A stretch of 10,926 bases of DNA from Armatimonadota bacterium (GTDB lineage Bacteria > Armatimonadota > Fimbriimonadia > Fimbriimonadales > GBS-DC). A model generated the notes under the pieces. It searched no databases, was not told the origin of the DNA, and saw nothing but the letters and a program-made list of their open reading frames with translations. Location of the stretch: NCBI GenBank assembly GCA_037445735.1, contig JBBIJY010000045.1, positions 1 through 10,926 of the forward strand, read 5' to 3'. The position numbers and the translations under genes were made by a program. Below, piece after piece: positions 1 through 10,926 of this stretch. Position 1 is the stretch's first letter. Each line of letters opens with the position of its first letter.

Positions 1-154
1 TTTGCCCCGATGGCGCTTGTACTATACCCCATCGATGACAGCGAAGTCAAGGGGTGTCGTCGATCGGGAGTTGATTTGAACTCAAGGGATGGAAAGTCGG
101 TGATCGACGGCAATCGGGTTGTGTGGATACGAGGTGTTGTGGTTGGATTGGTGA
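1..154. repeat. 154-bp direct repeat, copy 1 (CRISPR leader segment; identical to 10773..10926)
   Basis: Base-by-base identity of 1..154 (TTTGCCCCGATGG...GGATTGGTGA) with the last 154 nt of the window. Confidence 0.97.
21..50 (-). promoter_or_regulatory. Sigma70-like promoter in leader copy 1, pointing out of the window to the left
   Basis: Minus strand TTGACT-N18-TATAGT (45..50, 21..26); the same element precedes array 2 at 10793..10822. Confidence 0.6.
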
Positions 155-339
155 GAGGTCTACAGCGGGTGGTGGTATGGTGGTGGAAGTGTCGTCGAAC
201 GACCGGTCAGTCAGGATTAGTCGGGATTGGGGATGTTTTTGTTTTGCTGCCTGTGTCCCTCTTTTTTTTTCAGGGGGATAAGGATGTTAACTGGTGGGCA
301 TCGGCTCTGCCTTCGGGTGAAGCGGGTACACTTTACCCT

Positions 340-816
340 GTGATGGAGGGCAGGGCACCGCGCGAGAGCGAGGTCATTCTGACCCAGATGATGAACCCCG
401 AGCATGCGAACCCGCTGGGGAATGTGCATGGCGGCTGGATTCTGAAGCTGATTGACGAGGCGGGCGGGATTGTTGCCTCGCGTCATGCGCGCCGACCATC
501 GGTGACGGTTGAGATCGACTCGGTGAGTTTTCAGGCGCCTGTGCATGTGGGCAATCTGGTGCATGTGCGGGCGCGTATTACTCGCGCGTGGCGCACCTCG
601 ATGGAGATCGAGGCGATTGTGGAAGCCGAGAACCTGCTGACGGGCGAGCGGAGGCTGACCTCGCAGGCGTATCTGGTGTATGTGGCGCTGGACGAGCAGG
701 GTCGCCCGACGCCTGTGCCGCCCGTGCTGCCCGAAACGGACGAAGACCGCCGCAAGTGGGACCAGGCGGACCAGCGCCGTGCCGAACGGCTCGCCCGCCG
801 CGAAAAGAGGGGGTAG
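340..816 (+). CDS. Acyl-CoA thioesterase (hotdog fold, YciA-like)
   Basis: Motif NPLGNVHGGWILKLIDEAG, then SVTVEIDSVSFQAPVHVG and RTSMEI, and YVALDEQGRPTPVP. Start is GTG340 (7 nt after a TACACT -10 at 327..332) or ATG343; the longer ORF from 10 runs through non-coding leader DNA. Confidence 0.9.
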   Translation: MMEGRAPRESEVILTQMMNPEHANPLGNVHGGWILKLIDEAGGIVASRHARRPSVTVEIDSVSFQAPVHVGNLVHVRARITRAWRTSMEIEAIVEAENLLTGERRLTSQAYLVYVALDEQGRPTPVPPVLPETDEDRRKWDQADQRRAERLARREKRG

Positions 817-830
817 GGTATCCTTCCCCT

Positions 831-1016
831 ATGCCGATGGCGGTTCGATACGGGATCAGCGCGCTGATGGCGGTCTTCGGGCTGGCAATCATCTACTACG
901 ACTATGTTCTGCATCGGCGGCTGGAGGGCATCGCGCTGGGTGGATTGCTGATTGCGTGGGCGTTCCTGCGCATCTGGATTATCCGACGCTATCTGCCGCC
1001 GCGCCCGATGAAATAG
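831..1016 (+). CDS. Small membrane protein, 61 aa, two predicted TM helices, function unknown
   Basis: MPMAVRYGISALMAVFGLAIIYYDY...GIALGGLLIAWAFLRIWIIRR fills the intergenic gap; TATCCT -10 (819..824) lies 6 nt before the ATG. Confidence 0.7.
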   Translation: MPMAVRYGISALMAVFGLAIIYYDYVLHRRLEGIALGGLLIAWAFLRIWIIRRYLPPRPMK

Positions 1017-1047
1017 GGTACGATTCGCATGCGCACGGAGGCGAGCG

Positions 1048-1641
1048 TTGACGCGCGAGCGGCTCATACAGATGGAGAACGATGTGATCCGCGCGCTCAT
1101 CAGTGCGCTGGAGCTGGCGCACCCCTTTCTGGCGGGTCATAGCGAGCGTGTGGCGAGCTATGCGGTCGCGATTGGCTGCGAGCTGGGCTTGAGCAGACCC
1201 ACCCTGCGCCTGTTGCGCATTGCGGGCGCACTCCACGACATCGGCATGCTGGGGCTGCCCGATGAGCTGCTCACCTGCTCGAACCCGGCGCCCGAACAGT
1301 GGCAGGCGATTCGGGAGCATCCGCGCCTGAGCGTGCAGCTCCTGCGGCGCATCCAGCGGTTCCAGCACGCGCTGATTCTCATCGAGTGTCACCATGAGCG
1401 ATGGGACGGCAGTGGCTATCCGCACGGCTGGCGCGGCGAGCAGATACCGCTGCCGGCGCGCGTGCTGACGGTCGCCGAAGCGTTCGACGGCATGCGCACC
1501 CCGATGCCCTACCGACCCGCGCTCAGCGAACAGCAAGCCGTCGAACTCATCGAAGCGGGCGCGGGCAGCCTGTTCGACCCGCGCGTGGTGAAAGCCTTCC
1601 TCAAAGTGCAACCGCTCATCCAGCCTGTCGGACGCGAGTAG
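1048..1641 (+). CDS. Stand-alone HD-GYP domain protein (c-di-GMP phosphodiesterase family)
   Basis: GHSERV, LHDIG, HHERWDGSGYP, and RxxxPYR...FDP motifs; GGAGG SD at 1037..1041 before the TTG start. Confidence 0.9.
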   Translation: MTRERLIQMENDVIRALISALELAHPFLAGHSERVASYAVAIGCELGLSRPTLRLLRIAGALHDIGMLGLPDELLTCSNPAPEQWQAIREHPRLSVQLLRRIQRFQHALILIECHHERWDGSGYPHGWRGEQIPLPARVLTVAEAFDGMRTPMPYRPALSEQQAVELIEAGAGSLFDPRVVKAFLKVQPLIQPVGRE

Positions 1642-1674
1642 GGAAACGCCTGCCTGCATCGAACTCCATCCCTC

Positions 1675-2544
1675 GTGGTGGCGCTGATGGCGGAACTGTG
1701 GCATTATCGCGAGCTGTTATGGACGCTCGTCATCCGGGAACTGCGCGTGCGCTACAAAAACTCCGTTCTCGGATTCTTCTGGTCGCTGATCAACCCGCTC
1801 GTGACGGTGCTGGTGATGACCATCGTGTTCAAATATGTGATGGGCATGCGCATCGCGAACTACTCCGCCTATGTGCTGGTCGCCTATCTGCCCTGGACCT
1901 TCTTTCAGTTCGCGCTGCTCGATTCGAGCCAGACGATTCTGGCATATATGCCGGTCATCAAGAAGATCTATTTTCCGCGGGCGCTGCTGCCGCTGGCGAC
2001 CACGCTGGCGAATTTCATTCACTTTGTGCTGGCGATGGTGGTGCTGCTGCTCTATCTCCATCTCTATGTGGGCGCGCCGGTGCAGGTGGGGCTACTGCTG
2101 GTGCCGCTGGTGATGCTGACGGAGCTGCTGCTGGTGATGGGGCTGTCGCTGGTGATTGCCTGCTGGAACGCCTTCTATGAGGATGTGAAATATCTGGTGA
2201 GCGTCGGGTTGCAGTTGCTGTTCTTTCTATCGCCGATTATCTACTTTTCGGAACAGGTGCGTTATGCGGGTTTCGTGCCTGAGTCGTATCGGGAGACGCT
2301 GTTCTGTGCGTATCATCTTTTGAACCCGATGGCGACCTACGCGCTTGCCTACCGCAAGCTGATTCTGCCGCCCATCACGATTGTGCAGCAGAATCCGGGC
2401 ATCAGCGCCCAGCCGGTGCAGTTCCCCGATATGCCGCTGCCGTACTGGCTGCTGGGGGTTCATCTGCTGCTGGCGGCAGGTGTTGCGCTGGTCGGGCTGT
2501 TCTATTTCCGACGCCGTGAATGGGATTTTGTGGAGCGACCATGA
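1675..2544 (+). CDS. ABC-2 type polysaccharide export permease (Wzm/TagG family)
   Basis: RELRVRYKNSVLGFFWSLINPL, IKKIYFPR, FFLSPIIY and LLNPM motifs with multiple TM segments; the start could be ATG1687. Confidence 0.88.
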   Translation: MVALMAELWHYRELLWTLVIRELRVRYKNSVLGFFWSLINPLVTVLVMTIVFKYVMGMRIANYSAYVLVAYLPWTFFQFALLDSSQTILAYMPVIKKIYFPRALLPLATTLANFIHFVLAMVVLLLYLHLYVGAPVQVGLLLVPLVMLTELLLVMGLSLVIACWNAFYEDVKYLVSVGLQLLFFLSPIIYFSEQVRYAGFVPESYRETLFCAYHLLNPMATYALAYRKLILPPITIVQQNPGISAQPVQFPDMPLPYWLLGVHLLLAAGVALVGLFYFRRREWDFVERP

Positions 2545-3626
2545 ATCGGGCGGAGTTAGAGGCGTGGTTGAGGCTGTTGAATCTGGAGTTTTCGCCGGGC
2601 AAGTTGCGGGCGCTGCTGGCACGGTTCGGCGGCGACGCATCGGGCGTTTTGAGCGCGACGCCTGCCGAGTGGCGCGAGGTGCCTGGCGTACGCGAGGCGG
2701 ATGTGCAGGCGTTGATGCGCGCCGTGCAGGAGCCGTGCCCCATTCCGCCCGCGATTGCTGACGGCACTGTGCAGCTGGTGCTGGAGCGTGATCCGCGCTA
2801 TCCGGCGCCGTTGCGCGAGCAGCCCGATAGCCCTGTCGCGCTCTTCGTGTGGGGCACGCTGCAGGAGCGCGATCGGTTCGCGGTGAGCATCGTGGGCACG
2901 CGCGCGCCCAGCTCCTATGGGCGGATGGTCGCCGAGCGGCTCGCCCGCGATTTGAGCGAGGCGGGGCTGACGATTGTGAGCGGTGGCGCGCTGGGCATCG
3001 ATTCGGCGGCGCATCGGGCTGCCCTCGAAAGCGGCGGGCGCACGATTGCTATCATCGGCAGCGGGCTGGGACGGCTCTACCCTGCCGAGAACCGTCGCCT
3101 GTTCGAACGCATCGCGATGCAGGGCGCGGTCATCTCGCAATATCCCTACGAGGCGGAACCCGATGCGTGGCGGTTCCCCGTGCGCAATCAGCTGATTGCC
3201 GCCTGGGGGCTGGGCACAGTGGTGGTGGAGGCGCCCGAAGCCAGCGGCGCGCTCATCACTGCCCGACTCGCCGCCGAGTATGGACGCGAGCTGTTCGCCG
3301 TGCCCGGCAATATCGATAACCCGAAGGCGAAGGGCTGCCACCAGCTCATCAAGGATGGCGCGATGCTCATCGACTCGGCGCAGGATGTGCTGGACACGCT
3401 CGGCGTGCAACGCCAGCCGCGCGACGAGCCGACCGCCAGCCTGCCCGTGCTGACCGAAGTGCAGGAGCGACTGCTGAACGCGCTCTCGCTCCAACCGCAA
3501 CATCTGGACACGCTCGCCCGCGCCACGCAACTGCCCATTCAGCAGGTGCAGGTGGAGCTGACCATGCTGGAGATGATGGGGCTGGCACGCCGCATGCCAG
3601 GCGGCACCTTCGTACGGGTGCTGTAG
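2541..3626 (+). CDS. dprA: DNA-processing protein DprA (Smf)
   Basis: SIVGTRAPSSYG, IVSGGALGIDSAAHRAAL, FPVRNQLIA, VVEAPEASGALITA, GCHQLIKDGA and a C-terminal winged-helix segment; ATG2541 overlaps the permease stop (ATGA). Confidence 0.95.
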   Translation: MNRAELEAWLRLLNLEFSPGKLRALLARFGGDASGVLSATPAEWREVPGVREADVQALMRAVQEPCPIPPAIADGTVQLVLERDPRYPAPLREQPDSPVALFVWGTLQERDRFAVSIVGTRAPSSYGRMVAERLARDLSEAGLTIVSGGALGIDSAAHRAALESGGRTIAIIGSGLGRLYPAENRRLFERIAMQGAVISQYPYEAEPDAWRFPVRNQLIAAWGLGTVVVEAPEASGALITARLAAEYGRELFAVPGNIDNPKAKGCHQLIKDGAMLIDSAQDVLDTLGVQRQPRDEPTASLPVLTEVQERLLNALSLQPQHLDTLARATQLPIQQVQVELTMLEMMGLARRMPGGTFVRVL

Positions 3627-3631
3627 GCTGC

Positions 3632-4384
3632 CTATTCCCAGCAGAGCTTGCCCAGCGACACAGGCTTCGGAACGCCAGTCGTGCCCGGATATGCAACCGG
3701 CTCACCCTGCAGGTAGCAATCCGCCAGCACCGCGAACGCGATGGCCTCCTTGAAATCGGGATCGATGCCGTATAGCGCGGAGCTTTCGATGGCGGTATCG
3801 GGCAGGAGCGTTTGCAGGCGAGCCATCAGCGTGCGGTTGTGGACGCCGCCCCCGGAAACGATGAGTCGGCGCACGGGCACTTCGGGCAACACCCATCGCT
3901 GGATCGCGTCGGCAATTGTGCGGGCGGTCAGCTCCGTGAGCGTGGCGACCAGATTGTCCAGATCGCTCTTCTGCAGGTGATAGGCGAGCAGCATCGCCTG
4001 AAGCAACGCTTCACCGAACGGCTCGCGTCCGGTGGATTTGGGCGGTGGCAGGCGGAAGTAGGGGCGAGCGAGCAGTTCATCGAGCATCGCGGGGATAATC
4101 TGTCCGCGTGCCGCCCGTTCGCCGTCCCGATCGTAGCGTTCCGCGCCGTCGGTGCCCCAGCGCACCGCCAGATCGATCAGCGCGTTGCCCGGTCCTGTGT
4201 CGAAGGCGCGGATGGTGCTGGGGGAGCCGCTGGCAGGCAGCACGGTGAGGTTCGCGATGCCGCCAATATTGAGCGCGGCTCGCGGCTCGGTGCGATCGCT
4301 CAGCAGCAGCCAGTCGACGAAGGGCACAAGGGGGGCGCCCTGACCGCCGTACGCCATATCGCGCGTGCGGAAATCGGCAACAAC
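3632..4384 (-). pseudogene. anmK: Anhydro-N-acetylmuramic acid kinase, 5'-truncated
   Basis: Frame reads VVADFRTRDMAYGGQGAPLVP...LNIGGIAN...AFDTGPGN...PPKSTGRE...SGGGVHN...KEAIAFA. Upstream it runs directly into the CRISPR repeat (in-frame TGA at 4388..4390). The N-terminal SGTSxDG ATP-binding part is absent. Confidence 0.88.
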
Positions 4385-4480
4385 GTTTCAATCCCTCAGA
4401 GGTAGGCTACAAACGAAGGCGCAGGAGCTGCTCCTGCTCCTCAACCGTGTGTTTCAATCCCTCAGAGGTAGGCTACAAAC
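4385..4480 (-). CRISPR. CRISPR mini-array 1: 2 identical 30-bp repeats, one 36-bp spacer
   Basis: GTTTCAATCCCTCAGAGGTAGGCTACAAAC at 4385..4414 and 4451..4480; spacer 4415..4450. Orientation inferred from the reverse complement ending in ATTGAAAC, the typical Cas6 handle (type I-B-like repeat family). Confidence 0.9.
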
Positions 4481-4509
4481 GGTGGTCGACGGCTGCCCGC
4501 CCACCCTGG

Positions 4510-4569
4510 AGTATACCCCAAAGGCTGTCGGTCTCCTGCTCTATTATACCCCATCAGGTCTTTATGCAA
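4510..4569 (-). promoter_or_regulatory. Putative promoter(s) for mini-array 1
   Basis: Minus strand GGGTATAAT (4543..4551) with TTGCAT 15 nt upstream, and a second GGGTATACT (4510..4518). Shares GATGGGGTATA with the array-2 leader promoter. Confidence 0.5.
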
Positions 4570-4574
4570 CCCCT

Positions 4575-5000
4575 TCACTTGACAACCAGCACATGGCAGG
4601 GCGCGTGATTGACCAGCGCAGAGGCGGTACTGCCGAACACCCGCTCATGGAGCGTTGAGTGCCCCTGGTGCCCAATCACCAGCAGATCCACCTGATGGTG
4701 GTGGATGAACTCCACCATTGCCCACACCTCATGTCCTGCCACGATGTGGGTCTGAACGGGCATGCCCCTCTGTTGCGCCGCCTGCAGCACCTCCTGCTCC
4801 AGCTGGGCGAAGTAGGCATCTCGCTGATGTTTGACCTCCTCGTATTCACCGATGGTGATTGCATAGCGTGGCAGGTCCTCTTCCACCATTATCACGAACA
4901 GCTGGGTGTTGAGTGCCTGCGCCAGCGCCAGCCCTGTGTCGAGCGCCTTGCGGGCGCCGTCCGAGCCGTCAAAGCCGACCAGTATCCGCCGATACATCAT
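4575..5000 (-). CDS. Universal stress protein (UspA family)
   Basis: YRRILVGFDGSDGARKAL...DLLVIGHQG...FGSTASALVNHAPCHVLVVK; AGGAGGTG SD just upstream (start 5000 or 4997). Confidence 0.93.
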   Translation of the reverse strand: MMYRRILVGFDGSDGARKALDTGLALAQALNTQLFVIMVEEDLPRYAITIGEYEEVKHQRDAYFAQLEQEVLQAAQQRGMPVQTHIVAGHEVWAMVEFIHHHQVDLLVIGHQGHSTLHERVFGSTASALVNHAPCHVLVVK

Positions 5001-5013
5001 AACACCTCCTTCG

Positions 5014-6168
5014 CTAAGGGACAGACTCCGTCGCTTCAGTAGCCAGTGGCTCCACTTCTGTTGAGGGCTTGAAAAAGCTCTGGGCGATGAGGGTGGGCAG
5101 CAGCGCGCTCCCAATCACGACCGTCACCAGCACCGTGTACTGCTGCTGGTTGATGTAGCCGTGGGTCAAGCCGAACAGCGATGAGATGGTACCGAAGGTC
5201 AGCCCGGTGCTCATCAGCAGGGTGGTGTAGGTTGCCTCTCGATGGGGCATATGCCACAGGCGGCAGAGAGGATAACAGCCGACCACCTTCGCCACGATCT
5301 TGACCAGCAAGAGAATCGCCACCAGCCCGATGGCGGAGCCGAGCGCGGGCAGCGCGATGTACGAACCCGCTTTCAGGAAGTAGAACGGGGTGAGCAGGGT
5401 GAAGGTCACCGTGCGCAGCCGATGCATGAAGTCCCAGTTGCGCGCCATCGGCGCCGCCAGCGCCAACCCCAGCAGATAGGCAGGCAGCACCGCCTCACTG
5501 TTCGCCTGCACCGCCAGCGCACTTAGCAGCAAAACCAGCACCAGAATGAACTTGATCTGTGGCTCGCTGGTATGCACACTCACTCGCGCGAAGAACCAGC
5601 GGGTCAGCAGCGGCGCCAGCGGCAGGAGCAAAATGGACGCGCCCACAAACAGCAGTAGCCAGGCGTTAAAATGGGCAAACAGCAGTCCCAACGCGACGAC
5701 CGTGCCCAGATCGGTCACGAAGCACGCCGCCAGTATGAGTTTGCCCAGCGCCGTGCGGTTGAGACCTGTTTCGATCATCACGGCATAGACCACCGCCACC
5801 GAAGTGGTCGAAAGCGCAACGCCAGCGATTCTGGAGGCGTCCGCTGACCAGCCAGCGATGGAGAACGCATAAGCCATCGCCGCAAGGAAGGGCGCCACAA
5901 ACGAGACAAAACCGATTGCCAGCGATGCCTTCCAGTGCTGACGCAACGAATCGGGATCGATCTCCGCGCCTGCCAGAAAGGTCAGCAACACGCCGCCTAA
6001 ACCCGCCAGGAAATTAATCCACTCGTTTGGTTGAAGATGGAGCAGGTTGCCCGCAATCGTGCCCACAATAATCTCCATCAGCGCCACGCTGATCGCCAGT
6101 CGCATCGAAAGCAGCGAGGCAATCAGCGCCAGCCCAATCCACACAAAAGCGACCCACCAGACATTCAT
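5014..6168 (-). CDS. Cation:proton antiporter (Na+/H+ exchanger, CPA2/Kef-like), 384 aa
   Basis: Highly hydrophobic multi-TM protein with FLAGAEID, ALSTTSVAVV and ILAACFVTDLG motifs. Start set at MNVWW (6168) because the longer ORF overlaps the riboswitch. Confidence 0.88.
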   Translation of the reverse strand: MNVWWVAFVWIGLALIASLLSMRLAISVALMEIIVGTIAGNLLHLQPNEWINFLAGLGGVLLTFLAGAEIDPDSLRQHWKASLAIGFVSFVAPFLAAMAYAFSIAGWSADASRIAGVALSTTSVAVVYAVMIETGLNRTALGKLILAACFVTDLGTVVALGLLFAHFNAWLLLFVGASILLLPLAPLLTRWFFARVSVHTSEPQIKFILVLVLLLSALAVQANSEAVLPAYLLGLALAAPMARNWDFMHRLRTVTFTLLTPFYFLKAGSYIALPALGSAIGLVAILLLVKIVAKVVGCYPLCRLWHMPHREATYTTLLMSTGLTFGTISSLFGLTHGYINQQQYTVLVTVVIGSALLPTLIAQSFFKPSTEVEPLATEATESVP

Positions 6169-6248
6169 CGCGCCTGCCCCCCTGCCGTGTTGCAACCCGC
6201 AACGACGGTTGCAGGCGCCCGTAACAGCTGCCAGTGACCGTATACCAC
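6165..6248 (-). CDS. Putative 27-aa leader ORF (MVYGHWQLLRAPATVVAGCNTAGGQAR) coupled to the antiporter
   Basis: GGAGGTG SD (6255..6261) sits 6 nt before GTG6248; its TGA overlaps the antiporter ATG (ATGA, 6168..6165). Confidence 0.5.
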   Translation of the reverse strand: MVYGHWQLLRAPATVVAGCNTAGGQAR

Positions 6249-6271
6249 TGTCTTCACCTCCAGGAAAAGAT

Positions 6272-6334
6272 GCAGGAGTCATCAGCCGCTGGCGGCGGTT
6301 CGCCCCAAACGGGGGCGGGCGGAACTCCATCGCC
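6272..6334 (-). ncRNA. Fluoride riboswitch (crcB motif)
   Basis: Minus strand GGCGATGGAGTTCCGCC...AACCGCC...GCTGATGACTCCTGC matches the crcB consensus (P1 GGCG/CGCC, pseudoknot GGAGT/ACTCC). It lies upstream of antiporter and USP genes, classes known to follow this riboswitch. Confidence 0.9.
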
Positions 6335-6374
6335 CTCTCTGCAGTCCTACAAGGCGTGAGGGGACTGCAACTTT

Positions 6375-6402
6375 ATTATACCCTATCCCCTCACGGTATA
6401 CT
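6375..6402. promoter_or_regulatory. Back-to-back -10 elements for the divergent transcripts
   Basis: Minus strand GGGTATAAT (6375..6383) toward the riboswitch; plus strand GGTATACT (6395..6402) toward the 6426 gene. Confidence 0.55.
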
Positions 6403-6425
6403 TCCACAGACGGAGGGAGATGGAC

Positions 6426-6851
6426 ATGCGAAACCGATGGATGGTTGTGGCGTTAGGGCTTCTGCTTGGGCTGGGCGGGCTGCTCAGCCATGCGCAACTG
6501 GTGGAGAAGCTGCTCAAAGCGGGCGGCATCGCCTTTGTTGTGGACCGGCTGGGACCCGAAATGGACAGGGCGGTCAATCGGCTCACCAACACGAAGCCGA
6601 ACCGGAGTTTTGCGACGAAGGTGGTTCCCATCATCAGCGTTGGCACGGGCGCCTCTGTGGGCGCCGCGCAGGTGATGGGCAAACCCGACCTGGTGAAACG
6701 AGTGCAGGCGGTCGCCCAGATCGAGAGCAACTTCGCGGGGCGCCAGGTGCGTATCCGGGCGCTGGTGCCCATCTCCACCCGGAATCCTGGCAAGCGGCTC
6801 GAACGGGTGGAAGGCGTCGGTCTCTCCGGTCTGCTTGATATTCGCCTGTAG
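6426..6851 (+). CDS. Hypothetical exported protein with N-terminal signal peptide
   Basis: MRNRWMVVALGLLLGLGGLLSHA|Q signal-peptide pattern; GGAGGGAG SD at 6412..6419 (ATG6420 is an alternative start). Confidence 0.75.
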   Translation: MRNRWMVVALGLLLGLGGLLSHAQLVEKLLKAGGIAFVVDRLGPEMDRAVNRLTNTKPNRSFATKVVPIISVGTGASVGAAQVMGKPDLVKRVQAVAQIESNFAGRQVRIRALVPISTRNPGKRLERVEGVGLSGLLDIRL

Positions 6852-6903
6852 ACGCGGAAGCGCCCTATCAGCCAGTGTTGCTGGGCGATAAGCCAGACGC
6901 TCC

Positions 6904-7569
6904 ATGCAGCCCGATGGACTGGACTACACGGCGCAGGCGGAACTGCTGATCCAGCACATTCGCGAGAAAGGGGTGCGGGACGAGCGGGTGCTGGAGGCGA
7001 TTCGGCGCGTGCCCCGCCACCTGATGGTGCCCGAAGAGTACCGCTGGCAAGCCTATATTGATCACGCGCTGCCGATTGGCGAGGGTCAGACCATTTCCCA
7101 GCCCTCGCTGGTCGCCACGATGACCGAGCTGCTGGAGTTGCGGGGCGTCGAGCGCGTGCTGGAGATTGGCACGGGTTCGGGCTATCAGGCGGCGATTCTG
7201 ATATTGCTCTGTCGCGAGCTGGTGACGGTGGAGCGTTTCCCGCGTCTGGCGTTGCGGGCGTATCGGGTTCTCACCGCGTTGCGCTTTGCGCCCTCTGTGC
7301 AGGTGATTGGCGATGGCACGCGCGGTTTCCCGCCGATGGCGCCCTATGATCGGATTATCGTGACGGCGGGCGCGCCGCCGAGCATCCCGCCGCCGTTGCT
7401 GGAGCAGCTCTCGCCGAACGAGGGACGCCTGCTGCTGCCGCTCGGCTCCCGCACCCATCAGGTGCTGACACTCATCATCAAGCGCGGGCAGCAGCTGTCC
7501 ACCCGCACCTGCGGCGAGTGTGTGTTTGTACCCCTTGTGGGCGAGTATGGTTGGCAGCCGGACGAGTAG
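6904..7569 (+). CDS. pcm: Protein-L-isoaspartate O-methyltransferase
   Basis: VPRHLMVP, AYIDHALPIGEGQTISQP, VLEIGTGSGYQAAIL, APYDRIIVTAG, FVPLVG. Confidence 0.96.
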   Translation: MQPDGLDYTAQAELLIQHIREKGVRDERVLEAIRRVPRHLMVPEEYRWQAYIDHALPIGEGQTISQPSLVATMTELLELRGVERVLEIGTGSGYQAAILILLCRELVTVERFPRLALRAYRVLTALRFAPSVQVIGDGTRGFPPMAPYDRIIVTAGAPPSIPPPLLEQLSPNEGRLLLPLGSRTHQVLTLIIKRGQQLSTRTCGECVFVPLVGEYGWQPDE

Positions 7570-7580
7570 GGCGCCCCATT

Positions 7581-8453
7581 TTACCAGCGGACCTGGAGCC
7601 GATTGCGCAAATAGAGAGCCAGCGCGTTCATCGTCAGCAGCAGCGTTAGCAGCACGATAATGCCCGCTGCGGCGTTCTGATGGAAGCCGACCTGCGGGCG
7701 CGAAATCCAGTCGTAAATCTGCACGGGCAGGGCAGTGAAGGGCGAGGAGAGGCTATCGGGCAGTCGGGGCAGGAACACGAACGCGCCCAGCACCAGCAGT
7801 GGCGCGGTCTCGCCCACCACACGCGAAAGCGACAGGATGACCCCCGTCAGAATAGCGGGCATCGCGACAGGCAGCACAGCATGGCGCACGGTCTGCCACT
7901 GCGTGGCGCCGAGCGCGAGCGAGCCTTCGCGCAGACTGCGCGGCACCGCGCGCAAGCCCTCCCGCGCCGCCGTGATAATCACGGGCAACGCCAGCAACGC
8001 CATCGTGCATGCACCCGCCAGCAAACTGTGTCCCATCATCAGCGTTCGCACAAACACCTGCAGACCCAGCATCCCATAGATGACCGAGGGCACACCTGCC
8101 AGATTGGTGAGGTTGATATCGATCAGGCGGGTGAACCCGTTGCGCCGTGCGAACTCCTCCAGATAGATGGCGGCGCCCACGCCCACCGGCACCGCAATCG
8201 CCGCGGTCAGCAGCATCAGATAGAAACTGCCCACCAGCGCCACCTTGATGCCCGCGTTTTCGGGGATGCGCGAGGAGAAGGAGGTGAGAAAGCCGATGTT
8301 CAGGCGGGCATAACCGTCCAGCAGAATCTTGAGGATCAGCACGGTGAGCGCGGTTAATGCGAACAGCACCATCGTGGAGGCAATCAGCAGAAAGAGCCTC
8401 TCACGCCTCCTTATCGCCCGCCAGTGTGCCGGCGAGGAAATCAGCAGGCTCAT
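7581..8453 (-). CDS. pstA: Phosphate ABC transporter permease PstA
   Basis: [25 protein letters not shown]-loop [23 protein letters not shown]; follows pstC with ATGA overlap. Confidence 0.95.
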
Positions 8454-9412
8454 CGTCGCGCCTCCTTATAACGCGCCCGAAACGCCTCGCTCACCAGGTT
8501 CAGAGCGAGCGTGATGAGAAAGAGCAGCAGCCCCACCGCGAAGATGGTGCGATACTCCAGCGTGCCGTGCGGGACATCGCCCATCGCAATCTGCACGATG
8601 GAGGCGGTCATCGTCTGCACCGCCTGCAGCGGGTTGAAGGTGAAGTTCGGCTGTTGCCCCGCGGCAATGACGACGATCATCGTTTCGCCCACCGCGCGGG
8701 AGAGACCCAGCAGGAACGAGGCAGAGATTCCCGACATCGCGGCGGGCACCACCACGCCCCAGGTGGTTTGCAGGCGCGTCGCGCCCAGCGCCAGCGAGGC
8801 GTACCGCAGGCTGTTCGGCACCGCATAGAGGGCGTCCTCACTCAGCGAGGCGACCGTCGGCAAAATCATGAGTCCCATCACCAGCCCCGCCGAGAGCGCG
8901 TTGAAGCCCTCCAGCCCGGGAATGAACCGTTGCAGGAGAGGCGTGACGAAGGTGAGCGCAAAGTAGCCGTACACGACCGTCGGAATGCCCGCCAGCACCT
9001 CCAGCAGGGGTTTGACCACTCTGCGCAGGCGCGGTGAGGCATATTCGCTCAGGTAGACCGCCACAATCAGCCCCGTCGGCGCCGCCACACTGAGCGCAAT
9101 CACGGTGGTGAGCAGCGTGCCCATCACCAGCGGCAGCACCCCGAAAGCAGGTGGTTCAAACAGCGGCGCCCAGCGCGTGCCCGTCAGAAACTCCCGCAGC
9201 GAGACCCCCTTGAAAAAGCCCAGACTCTCCGTCAGCAGGATCAGCACGATGGCAACCGTGGTCAGAATGCCCACGATCGCGCACAGGAACAGGAAGACGC
9301 GCACGAAGAACTCCCGAACGCGCACAGAAAAGCGCAGGCGACGAGCGGACGGAAAGGCGACCACCGCCCTTTGACCGGTATCCGTTTCAGGGAGCGAAGC
9401 CTTACTGTCCAC
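8450..9412 (-). CDS. pstC: Phosphate ABC transporter permease PstC
   Basis: [48 protein letters not shown] start overlaps the pstS end (exact start uncertain). Confidence 0.95.
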
Positions 9413-10463
9413 CCTTTCCCGTGCCCTCCTCGATTCGGTAGAGGTCTTCCAGTTTCACGCCCACCTGCGAGCCTTTTGCGCCGAACACCGAGCCAGTGAT
9501 ACGCCGCTCCAGTCGCTGCTTCGCCAGCTCGTACACCTTCGGTGGCAGGGGCACATAGCCCACCTCCTTCGCCAGCGCGCCCGCGTTTTCAATATAGAAC
9601 TCTATGAAGGCGCGCACCTGCGGCTTCTCCAGCGATTTCACATTCACATAGATGAAGAGGGGGCGCGAGAGCGGCTGATAGGTGCCATTCAGAACCGTCT
9701 GCTCGCTGGGCAGGATGGGCCCGTCGCCGTTCGCCGGGTTCTCGTCGTCAATCGCGACCACTTTGAGGCGCTCCCTGTTCTGCAGGTAGTATGCCAGCCC
9801 GAAGTAGCCCAGTGCGTTCTCGTTGGTGGCGATGCCCTGCACCAGCGTATTGTCGTCCTCGCTGGAGTTGTAGTCGCTGCGGCTGCTGTGTTCCTTGCCC
9901 ACAATCGCAGCGGTGAAGTAGTCGAAGGTGCCTGAATCGACGCCCGCCCCGTACAGCACGAGCGGGCGGTCCGGGAAGCCGGGGCGAACCTGCGACCAGC
10001 GCTGGATTTTGCCCGTCGCTTCGGGCGACCAGATCTTGCGCAGCTCGCTCACCGTGAGGTCGTCGCACCCGGTGTTTTTCGGGTTCACCACCACCGCCAG
10101 CGCGTCATAAGCGACGGGGATTTCGATATACTCGATGCCGTTCTTTCGGCAGGCTTCGTCTTCAACGGGGCGAATGGGTCGCGAGGCGCCTGTGATGTCG
10201 ATCTCGCCGTGGGCGAACTTTTTGAAGCCGCCGCCTGTGCCCGACTTGCGGACGGCAGGCATCGTGTTAGGGTGCAGCTTCTGGAACTCTTCCGCAACGG
10301 CTTCCGAGAGGGGCAGCACGGTGCTGGAGCCGTCCACGATAATCGTGCCGCGGAGACCGCCTGCACCACCCGATGCTGCTGAGCCGTTCGAAGCCTGGCG
10401 CTGGCAGCCCGCCATCAGCCCCGCCAGCGCGATCAGCACCGTCAGGATTGTCCAGCGCGTCAT
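9402..10463 (-). CDS. pstS: Phosphate ABC transporter substrate-binding lipoprotein PstS
   Basis: Lipobox [51 protein letters not shown]. Confidence 0.95.
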
Positions 10464-10472
10464 AACACTTTG

Positions 10473-10506
10473 AGCCTACCCGTTGCCCTGTTAAGGAATG
10501 GTTAAG
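10473..10506 (-). promoter_or_regulatory. pstS promoter: Pho-box-like tandem repeat plus -10
   Basis: Minus strand CTTAACCA-TTC-CTTAACAG (10506..10488; 11-bp period, resembles the SphR/PhoB-type CTTAACCT box), 9 nt upstream of a TAGGCT -10 (10478..10473), itself 9 nt from the ATG. Confidence 0.7.
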
Positions 10507-10528
10507 CGCGGAGTGGATATAATCGAAC

Positions 10529-10671
10529 GTTTCAATCCCTCAGAGGTAGGCTACAAACAAGGAATGGTTAAGCGCAGACGTTTCAATCCCTCAGAGGTAG
10601 GCTACAAACCACGAAGCGAAAACAATCGGAGGGTGAGCAACGTTTCAATCCCTCAGAGGTAGGCTACAAAC
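10529..10671 (-). CRISPR. CRISPR mini-array 2: 3 identical 30-bp repeats, spacers of 21 and 32 bp
   Basis: Repeats at 10529..10558, 10580..10609 and 10642..10671, identical to array 1; spacers 10559..10579 and 10610..10641. Confidence 0.92.
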
Positions 10672-10926
10672 CAACCCCCTGCAGCGGGCAGGCGCGAACG
10701 CCCACCCGCTCAGAGGCACAGCTCTGAACTCCAATCGGACCCTTCGCCCGATTGTCAAGGTGCACGCACAGCTTTGCCCCGATGGCGCTTGTACTATACC
10801 CCATCGATGACAGCGAAGTCAAGGGGTGTCGTCGATCGGGAGTTGATTTGAACTCAAGGGATGGAAAGTCGGTGATCGACGGCAATCGGGTTGTGTGGAT
10901 ACGAGGTGTTGTGGTTGGATTGGTGA
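10672..10926 (-). promoter_or_regulatory. CRISPR leader with promoter and inverted-repeat motif
   Basis: TTGACT-N18-TATAGT (10822..10793) points at the array; TGTCGTCGATC/GATCGACGGCA inverted repeat at 10827..10837 and 10874..10884; non-coding. Confidence 0.7.
10773..10926. repeat. 154-bp direct repeat, copy 2 (identical to 1..154)
   Basis: Direct sequence comparison. Confidence 0.97.

Follow-up and report, generated by a model that had tools for sequence, protein, structure and literature searches.

How do small CRISPR arrays come to lie among ordinary chromosomal genes, away from any cas operon? The question is raised by the window analysed here, a stretch of 10,926 nt which is the entire contig C45 (10.9 kb) of the 2.78-Mb draft genome of an Armatimonadota bacterium (59 contigs, 99.2% complete). 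This genome, a metagenome bin, is labelled G000 and its relatives G001, G002 etc., G002 being the sister genome; the sequencing runs containing the window are labelled as a subsurface metagenome, and no RNA run is listed among them. The window carries two CRISPR mini-arrays and no cas genes. The explanation we favour, with a probability of about one half, is that the mini-arrays are by-products of self-targeting by a type I-B system. A spacer of self origin and its protospacer would then have undergone recombination or repair, whereby the CRISPR repeat, at times along with the leader, was fused to the target.

The 30-nt repeat GTTTCAATCCCTCAGAGGTAGGCTACAAAC (plus strand) is present in five exact copies, at positions 4385, 4451, 10529, 10580 and 10642, each of which scores 43.3 bits with the Rfam model CRISPR-DR2 (gathering score 37). 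Mini-array 1 (4385–4480, minus strand) consists of two repeats (4385–4414 and 4451–4480) around the spacer S36 (4415–4450), and mini-array 2 (10529–10671, minus strand) of three repeats (10529–10558, 10580–10609 and 10642–10671) separated by the spacers S21 (10559–10579) and S32 (10610–10641). Both are oriented alike, all five repeats are identical, and the spacers measure 36 and 32 nt with one short spacer of 21 nt, as befits CRISPR arrays. The exact copies and the Rfam matches bear out the preliminary description, which had recognized two mini-arrays with one and two spacers and five identical repeats in the same orientation among housekeeping genes. The mini-arrays are real type I-B CRISPR units. 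The minus-strand repeat ends in ATTGAAAC; this is the conserved 3′ end of the repeat, which gives rise to the 5′ handle of the CRISPR RNA (crRNA), as stated in PMC8482600.

Array 2 is preceded by a CRISPR leader of at least 255 nt (10672–10926, minus strand), composed of a segment L (10672–10827) and a segment M (10828–10926, 99 nt). A promoter-like sequence, TTGACT-18-TATAGT (minus strand, 10822–10793; −35 at 10822–10817, −10 at 10798–10793), is directed from the leader into the array (one site in the scan vs 0.2 expected). L has homologues among the leaders that precede long arrays in both G001 and G002; in G001, a similar leader of ~290 nt, located after cas2, heads at least four long arrays, and arrays of 48, 33, 31 and 20 repeats were found there. 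The minus strand is taken to be the transcribed one because of the repeat 3′ end, the direction of the leader promoter and the placement of the leader in G001. A promoter-like region had been ascribed to each of the two arrays, and this held for array 2 but not for array 1. The promoter scan of the region upstream of array 1 found none, and the DNA there shows no similarity to L. It is the native usp-anmK intergenic region (4481–4574, minus strand), conserved in the array-free G002, hence no CRISPR leader, and the putative promoter of array 1 is that of the native gene, with a TATAAT-like box at 4548–4543.

The repeats are by no means confined to the window, so that the possibility of only these copies existing falls away and the expectation of further ones is confirmed. 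Altogether, 17 copies (at most two mismatches) were found at nine places on seven contigs of G000: the two window mini-arrays, a two-repeat unit on contig C9, single repeats on C13, C18 and C21, and three array ends cut by contig ends (one on C20 and two on C41). One further, degenerate repeat lies on C9 behind a leader copy. Copies of L were detected at C9:97872-98027 (100% identical), on C21 (84%) and at C9:45120-45273 (80%). In the last of these regions (C9:45000-45400, minus strand) the 80% leader copy ends in the degenerate repeat, the 3′ end of which supplies, as judged by eye, the ATG of a XerC/XerD-like recombinase gene. The single cas operon, of type I-B, lies on contig C2, which differs from the contig of the window, and no array stands beside it. 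Its order is cas6, an untyped open reading frame (ORF) of 487 aa, cas7, cas5, cas3, cas4 and cas1, with cas2 seen by eye only; the profile scores were 450 vs 304 bits for Cas1b (TIGR03641) and 229 vs 73 for Cas7 of type I-B (TIGR02585). The operon is complete including cas3, cas4 and cas1, which speaks for the favoured explanation.

The repeat (at most three mismatches) is also present in nine of the 30 relatives searched, i.e. in 10 of 31 genomes including G000. Units composed of leader, single repeat and flank were found on C21 in G000 and also in G001, G002 (including G002:C10), G007, G015 and G016. Several of the units in relatives deserve a mention of their own. In G007, which belongs to another genus, a leader with a single repeat and then a partial repeat stand on contig C28 directly before the ATG of a trpC-like gene (by eye). 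G001:C19:13500-17400 contains two units of leader and two repeats in the same orientation that flank ~2.9 kb, which resembles the leader pair flanking pdxT-tRNA in G000. The long arrays on G001:C15 and G001:C7 have the second spacer in common and differ in the first and third, and partial repeats within spacers in G001:C12 and on C9 represent visible internal decay. At G002:C28:8526-8625, a stretch with 89% identity to the cas6-cas8 region of the G000 operon gives way directly to a two-repeat unit, beyond which comes DNA that lies ~850 nt from an array end in G000; an event of this type may have cut short the cas operon of the sister genome. G000 also has a second family of CRISPR repeats (~37 nt), likewise ending in ATTGAAAC, which consists of just a one-spacer mini-array and a solitary degenerate copy (C31:26032-26138 and C2:175899). 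Each of the two is preceded by a copy of a short leader that they share and that bears a TATAAT box.

The comparison of filled with empty sites, suggested in the preliminary description, was possible with G002, whose similarity to the window (94–96% identity) falls into three blocks that break off at the arrays. At base level the comparison covers this one close pair of genomes; other pairs are too distant for the junctions to be read base by base (G001 and G003 are ~77% identical, the relatives of G007 ~79%). Where array 1 stands, usp, the intergenic region and an anmK of full length are found in G002. In G000, ~480 nt, from just after ‘...cgaccacc’ to anmK codon 124, are replaced by the 96-nt array. 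What is left of anmK (3632–4384, minus strand) covers only Pfam AnmK positions 125–364, with the frame open up to the repeat, and the N-terminal part was not found elsewhere in the G000 genome. A G002-like empty anmK allele, with 571 letters between 4385 and 4541, is present in sequencing run X2, which comes from the same study as run X1 discussed below. Two further observations concern this gene and its surroundings. A second short AnmK fragment (Pfam positions 288–364) lies at C58:80-310 on a 2.2-kb contig of lower G+C content, which may represent another strain or contamination. In G002, the usp-anmK intergenic region contains a 12-nt remnant of the repeat 3′ end (gaggattgaaac) inside a 31-nt stretch absent from G000 (region G002:C29:19575-19605); an older repeat may have sat there.

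At the site of array 2, a divergent gene on G002:C8 starts 7 nt from the same pstS upstream sequence, with no repeat and a plain upstream region of 86 nt; in G000, M, L and the array occupy the place of ~1.36 kb. On C9, ~550 nt between pdxS and pdxT, as well as the first 7 nt of pdxT, have given way to a leader, two repeats and a spacer of 25 nt. At the C18 site, 3 nt and one repeat replace 817 nt within an ORF, and at the C21 site 784 nt have been exchanged for the 84% leader with one repeat, 377 nt in all. Native DNA on the side of the CCN triplet described below was lost at all five filled sites (~480, 550, 817 and 784 nt and ~1.36 kb). The left ends vary from the repeat alone to the repeat with 255 nt of leader, and the inserted units from 33 nt to more than 400 nt. 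No target-site duplication was found at any of the five sites, and none of the 25 longest inverted-repeat pairs listed (of 56 found) flanks either window array. The arrays are young and lineage-specific, since the sites are empty in the 95%-identical G002.

The junctions follow a simple rule. At each of the five filled sites, the trailer-side flank can be aligned to G002 from its very first base, the one next to the last repeat, and the three bases just before the junction in G002 are CCC (anmK), CCT (pstS), CCA (pdxT), CCA (C18) and CCG (C21). With a CC dinucleotide frequency of 0.079 in G000, the chance of five in five is ~3e-6 by our own arithmetic. The triplets fit a CCN protospacer-adjacent motif (PAM) directly 5′ of a protospacer, and we infer that CCN is the PAM of this system. 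Type I-B and I-A systems are known to use CCN as a PAM, with Clostridium, Moorella and Ureibacillus among the entries (PMC8482600, Table 1), and it is given as the PAM in Pyrococcus furiosus in the accessible part of PMC5737086. The presumed protospacers would be the first 36 nt of the anmK remnant (4384–4349) at array 1 and, at array 2, the repeat-proximal 36-nt flank F36 (10528–10493) of the native pstS upstream region (10464–10528, minus strand). The idea was formed after the first three junctions and the S36 site described below had been seen, and the five junctions examined later are the post-hypothesis set. In this set, CCN was present at three of five (C18 CCA, C21 CCG and G002:C27 CCC; chance ~0.004), the last in the comparison with G000:C14, in a region of 89.7% identity with an indel. 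All junctions taken together gave CCN at six of eight.

The spacers point to the same DNA. S36 matches the coding strand of the G002 anmK at 28 of 36 positions. The matching stretch lies inside the segment deleted from G000, 233 nt upstream of the junction, with CCT immediately before it, and several of the differences fall at third codon positions. No other 36-mer reaches 28/36 in G000 (both strands, 5.5 million positions), and one reaches 27. Judged by this alignment, S36 is derived from the deleted 5′ part of anmK, and with this deletion no target of it remains in G000. An exact search for S36 returned nothing in metagenome contigs or genome contigs. S21 is identical to the last 17 nt of F36 (10493–10509, 17/17) and looks like a 5′-shortened copy of it. 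A possible target of S21, located 15 nt downstream in the pstS upstream region, agrees with it at 19 of 21 positions and follows CCA. The 25-nt spacer on C9 is a patchwork in which 4 nt are combined with 12 nt from the start of the repeat and with 9 nt that recur at positions 27–35 of its own flank. S32 had no exact match in viral contigs and no match in its own genome. A likeness of S32 to the pstS junction was not counted, as 24 of 300 shuffles reached its score under permissive and 168 of 300 under strict settings, with the best match falling on the junction. Spacers of foreign origin, which are typical of CRISPR arrays but not required, were thus not found among the three (S36 from anmK, S21 from the flank, S32 unmatched).

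In the proposed course of events, an array would first acquire a spacer from its own chromosome, beside a CCN PAM. The crRNA would then target the protospacer and Cas3 would degrade the DNA on the PAM side; in editing with Cas3, deletions upstream of the PAM are the rule, according to the available part of PMC6897959. The break would be healed by means of the sole homology available, the spacer in the array. This could proceed by single-strand annealing or crossover with an upstream array, with the intervening DNA being deleted and the array reset to one repeat. It could also proceed by strand invasion at the spacer and copying, which would paste the repeat, any newer spacers and, if the spacer was the newest, the leader before the protospacer, with the far end closed by end joining. 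The outcome would be a repeat fused to base 1 of the protospacer, with the PAM and up to ~1.4 kb upstream lost, and the cargo taken from the array would vary from the repeat alone to repeat-spacer-repeat or repeats with leader and promoter. As the repeat replaces the PAM, the site would no longer be targeted. Array 1 would be accounted for if two anmK spacers were neighbours in the donor array, which is what primed uptake would produce. Variable left ends, the units of leader, single repeat and flank, the identical leader copies and the patchwork short spacers would all be due to this proposed spacer-templated repair. The loss of native DNA on the PAM side (5/5) and the derivation of S36 and S21 from lost or adjacent DNA are the marks to be expected of such scars. 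We infer both Cas3 as the cause of the damage and the repair route used.

Several points weigh against this explanation. S36 is just 78% identical to the G002 anmK vs 90–95% for the flanks, and its source may be another allele. No donor array with any of the five 36-nt flanks as a spacer was found in the assembly, which is a weak objection because the long arrays are broken at contig ends. Outside G000, CCN was present at one of three testable junctions: G002:C28 compared with G000:C20 gave GTG, and G016:C186 compared with G036 gave none. At both of these, homology to the empty site is absent from the first 8 bases of the flank. The putative CCN PAM is read from the junctions themselves. Spacer 2 of G001:C53 matches G000:C3:48680-48715 at 33 of 36 positions, and the PAM side reads ATT and the far side TTC in the G000 allele. 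It was the one usable match of 132 G001 spacers compared with the G000 genome and selected loci, and lacks CCN; a 3.5-kb G001 array had no match in GenBank phages and two weak matches in five relatives without the repeat. The structure of S21, repeat and full flank does not arise from a simple crossover, and an extra step is needed. Array 1 and the C18 repeat are without leader and so could not have grown in place by normal acquisition. Finally, the genome is a metagenome bin and the junctions are supported by assembled contigs. The G001 spacer just mentioned (G001:C53:2770-2805) is of interest in itself, as it matches a chromosomal protein-coding gene of G000 and no other of 29 family genomes at three or fewer mismatches, which suggests uptake of chromosomal DNA from kin.

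Among the alternatives, the one that survives best, although we consider it unlikely, assigns the fusions to the integrase. Cas1-Cas2, with Cas4, would have joined a PAM-processed chromosomal end to the leader-side repeat in a half-completed integration, with no interference by Cas3. The same exact PAM boundary is predicted, and the order leader, single repeat, flank, as seen at C21, G002:C10, G007, G015 and G016, follows directly. Both Cas4 and Cas1b are present, and nicking of the leader-proximal repeat and self-uptake around arrays have been documented in P. furiosus (PMC5737086, in the part at hand). Taken alone, however, this reaction leaves unexplained the leaderless units (array 1 and C18 with its 3 nt and repeat) and the presence, in older positions, of spacers from the same flank, and no published case of it was found in the literature.

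The fusions might otherwise be ordinary orphan arrays, remnants shrunk by recombination between repeats and accompanied by random flanking deletions, with CCN being a coincidence. Genomes with multiple arrays and shared leaders are common, as exemplified by G001 with its at least four long arrays and ~290-nt leader, internal decay is visible in the partial repeats mentioned above (G001:C12 and C9), and CCN is absent from two of the three junctions outside G000. Yet arrays whose sites are empty in a 95%-identical relative are young rather than residual, CCN at five of five exact boundaries would be a coincidence of ~3e-6, and S36 stems from the very gene that adjoins array 1. We therefore regard this origin as rather improbable.

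According to the preliminary description, leader-repeat modules seemed to spread around the chromosome like small non-autonomous elements. Three 100%-identical leader copies, besides the 84% and 80% ones, are in keeping with such transposition, as are the lineage-specific sites and the similar modules upstream of genes in other genera. The sites themselves speak a different language: native DNA was lost at five of five with no target-site duplication, and the units have no fixed ends (their length runs from 33 nt to over 400 nt, the leader is present in some and absent from others, and the left ends vary). The 25 longest inverted-repeat pairs listed include none that flanks the arrays, and no transposase was seen among the window genes by Pfam annotation. 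Mobility of this kind is very unlikely.

The other suggestion of the preliminary description, a distributed guide-RNA network, fared no better. In such a scheme the short or partly matching spacers would yield regulatory crRNA-like RNAs guiding Cascade to nearby promoters, e.g. S21 to the pstS upstream region, and repressing them without cutting. S21 does match the flank 15 nt downstream (19/21, behind CCA), and type I mini-arrays with partly matching spacers regulate cas and cargo genes, as described in the accessible part of a preprint (Shmakov 2023). The present arrays, however, lie away from the cas locus and are absent from both G002 sites; S36 has no remaining target and for S32 none was found, which leaves S21 as the only spacer with a possible one. 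Furthermore, S21 ends where the 36-nt flank ends, which fits a truncated duplicate better than an evolved guide. We give this possibility, and with it the network, very little credit.

The last alternative concerns the assembly, and with it the leader copy at the window start. The first 154 nt (minus strand), M (99 nt) and the first 55 nt of L, are 100% identical to 10773–10926. They continue in a further distal stretch of the full-length leader (155–215, minus strand), recognized by eye against the G002:C26 and G001 leaders and not seen in the copy of array 2. Window positions 1–213 match G001:C15 and G001:C16 at 76%. In the assembly graph, the ends of the contig form a repeated node, with 55-nt overlaps with C9 at 97872–97926 and 99186–99240 (one C9's end, the other internal) that are typical of k=55. 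In the Logan contigs of run X1, the piece with repeat and L has a depth of 51 vs ~18 for the contig body, which corresponds to ~3 copies. The gene order in G002 is pdxT, tRNA, ..., pstS, so that the end of C9 most likely joins the right end of the window and the left-end leader copy belongs to another locus. This copy carries ~60 nt more of the distal leader (155–215), as do the full leaders in G001 and G002, and the same upstream sequences precede arrays at G002:C26 and G002:C21. A third, unassembled array is likely to lie just left of base 1, which agrees with the earlier suggestion that this leader copy points to an array outside the window; both the depth and the full leaders found before long arrays in relatives speak for it. 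A 10.77-kb circle or plasmid was considered and rejected, as the genes are chromosomal, the end of C9 overlaps M and the order matches G002.

The depth at the left end is uneven, with 10.9 at 229–428 and alternative continuations at base 220. The flank-repeat junctions in the Logan contigs of run X1 have a depth of 13.8–18, i.e. the genome level; the Logan contigs compared come from four runs of one study, break at each repeat and stem from the same study as the likely source of the genome, and are therefore not independent. That the arrays are an artefact, a chimera formed through CRISPR repeats or collapsed long arrays, is hardly credible in spite of the draft bin with contigs breaking in arrays (C20 and C41 ends), the window ends made of repeated leader, and the lower depth and alternative continuations just mentioned, because the flanks of array 1 are neighbours in G002 too, the end of C9 overlaps M with the same pdxT-tRNA-pstS order in G002, Logan contigs span the flank-repeat junctions at full depth with a 30-nt repeat shorter than the 55-nt contig-end overlaps, and an artefact would not place CCN at the empty sites.

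The genes of the window are ordinary chromosomal ones, coding for a 4HBT thioesterase, tRNA-Glu, an HD-domain protein, an ABC-2 permease, DprA, AnmK, Usp, a Na+/H+ exchanger behind a fluoride riboswitch, PCMT, and PstS with two permeases. The pst operon (7581–10463, minus strand), consisting of pstS (10463–9402; Pfam PBP_like_2) and the pstC-like (9412–8450) and pstA-like (8453–7581) genes (BPD_transp_1 twice), is located downstream of array 2 on the same strand. The fluoride riboswitch (Rfam RF01734, 53 bits vs 34) at 6266–6343 (minus strand) stands directly upstream of the gene of the Na+/H+ exchanger family (ORF 6330–5014), which is followed by the usp gene. A synteny break relative to G002 is located at 7571–7582, with PCMT and everything to the left on one G002 contig and pstA onward on another; it is spanned by a Logan contig of run X1 (4451–10555).

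If the mini-arrays are scars of self-targeting, the affected genes bear the consequences. With its 5′ part lost, anmK is a fresh pseudogene. The leader promoter is predicted to read through array 2 into pstSCA, the ATG of pstS lying 65 nt after the last repeat. The predicted leader promoter on C9 likewise reads into pdxT, where an ORF starting from a TTG inside the repeat encodes a complete SNO/PdxT domain (profile 1–184 from residue 5, 219 bits). Leader-driven transcripts of pstSCA and pdxT would carry Cas6 sites.

Recombination at spacers has a precedent of a kind. Varble and colleagues reportedly described, in 2019, recombination between CRISPR spacers and phage protospacers in staphylococci. 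There, 30–40 bp of identity between spacer and protospacer likewise serve as the substrate and CRISPR material is moved to new DNA, but phage and array are joined and transduction is served, whereas here recombination with the own chromosome would yield mini-arrays, gene truncation and promoter fusions. Neo-CRISPR loci, which Nivala and colleagues are said to have described in 2018, arise from off-target spacer integration and are similar in that small arrays form outside the canonical locus by means of the CRISPR machinery; their repeats are reportedly duplicated local sequence, in contrast to the canonical genome-wide repeat found here, with identical copies in the window. The long-repeat/short-repeat elements of Methanocaldococcus jannaschii consist of a conserved leader and one to many repeats and are scattered over the chromosome. 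They share with the present units the multi-copy leader and the variable repeat number; junctions beside a PAM, empty sites or a mechanism of origin are not known to have been described for them. CreTA is also a regulatory mini-array or crRNA-like RNA system.

The regulatory mini-arrays of Shmakov et al. (2023), as far as the accessible part of the preprint goes, resemble array 1 in having two repeats and one spacer matching nearby host DNA; they lie in or beside cas loci, are conserved and match promoters in part, whereas the arrays described here are far from cas and absent from the sister genome, with one target lost. Chromosomal self-targeting gives deletions in Pectobacterium (type I-F; PMC3630108) and Haloferax (type I-B; PMC7521656), in the latter by microhomology-mediated end joining. 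A toxic self-spacer whose survivors lose the protospacer and flanking DNA, often via microhomology, is the common element with our case. In the available parts of these reports, however, the break is end-joined or the spacer or cas genes mutate, and the events are induced, whereas here the repeat is fused at the PAM boundary and the events are natural. In P. furiosus (PMC5737086), self-spacers are taken up preferentially around CRISPR arrays. The likeness extends to the repeat 3′ end ATTGAAA-, the CCN PAM, many arrays with one leader, and host-genome spacers near arrays; the difference is that acquisition only, seen as lethal autoimmunity, is dealt with and no fixed repeat-protospacer fusions are reported in the part of that paper at hand.

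Self-targeting deletions, CCN PAMs, uptake around arrays, recombination of spacers with phage protospacers, regulatory mini-arrays inside cas loci and genomes rich in leader-repeat loci are thus known already. Our searches of the literature, taken without supplements, yielded no account that traces dispersed mini-arrays to a canonical repeat being joined to a chromosomal protospacer at the PAM boundary, nor one of a spacer recombining with its protospacer in a chromosome. A far-reaching version of our explanation, which is speculative and on balance doubtful, would be that, in this lineage, the leader-proximal end of an array is copied time and again into sites of self-targeting by spacer-templated break repair. 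New arrays would be seeded and genes deleted, and housekeeping genes downstream would gain a CRISPR promoter as well as a 5′ end that Cas6 can cleave. With S21 as a leftover guide, Cascade would bind the pstS control region without cutting it, and autoimmunity would be a regular source of new CRISPR loci and new regulation of genes.

The criterion, namely whether the empty site shows a PAM, is simple and suits every close pair of genomes, and is thus checkable at a large scale, and the interest to specialists would be real if the junction rule holds in a larger sample. Self-targeting spacers are common, and how they are naturally survived is known mostly from induced laboratory events; if the fusions are genuine scars, they are a readable natural record of CRISPR autoimmunity and repair. 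The origin of scattered mini-arrays, solitary repeats and extra leader copies would then be explained, and CRISPR would be a cause of gene loss (anmK), operon rewiring (pstSCA and pdxT) and synteny breaks between 95%-identical strains.

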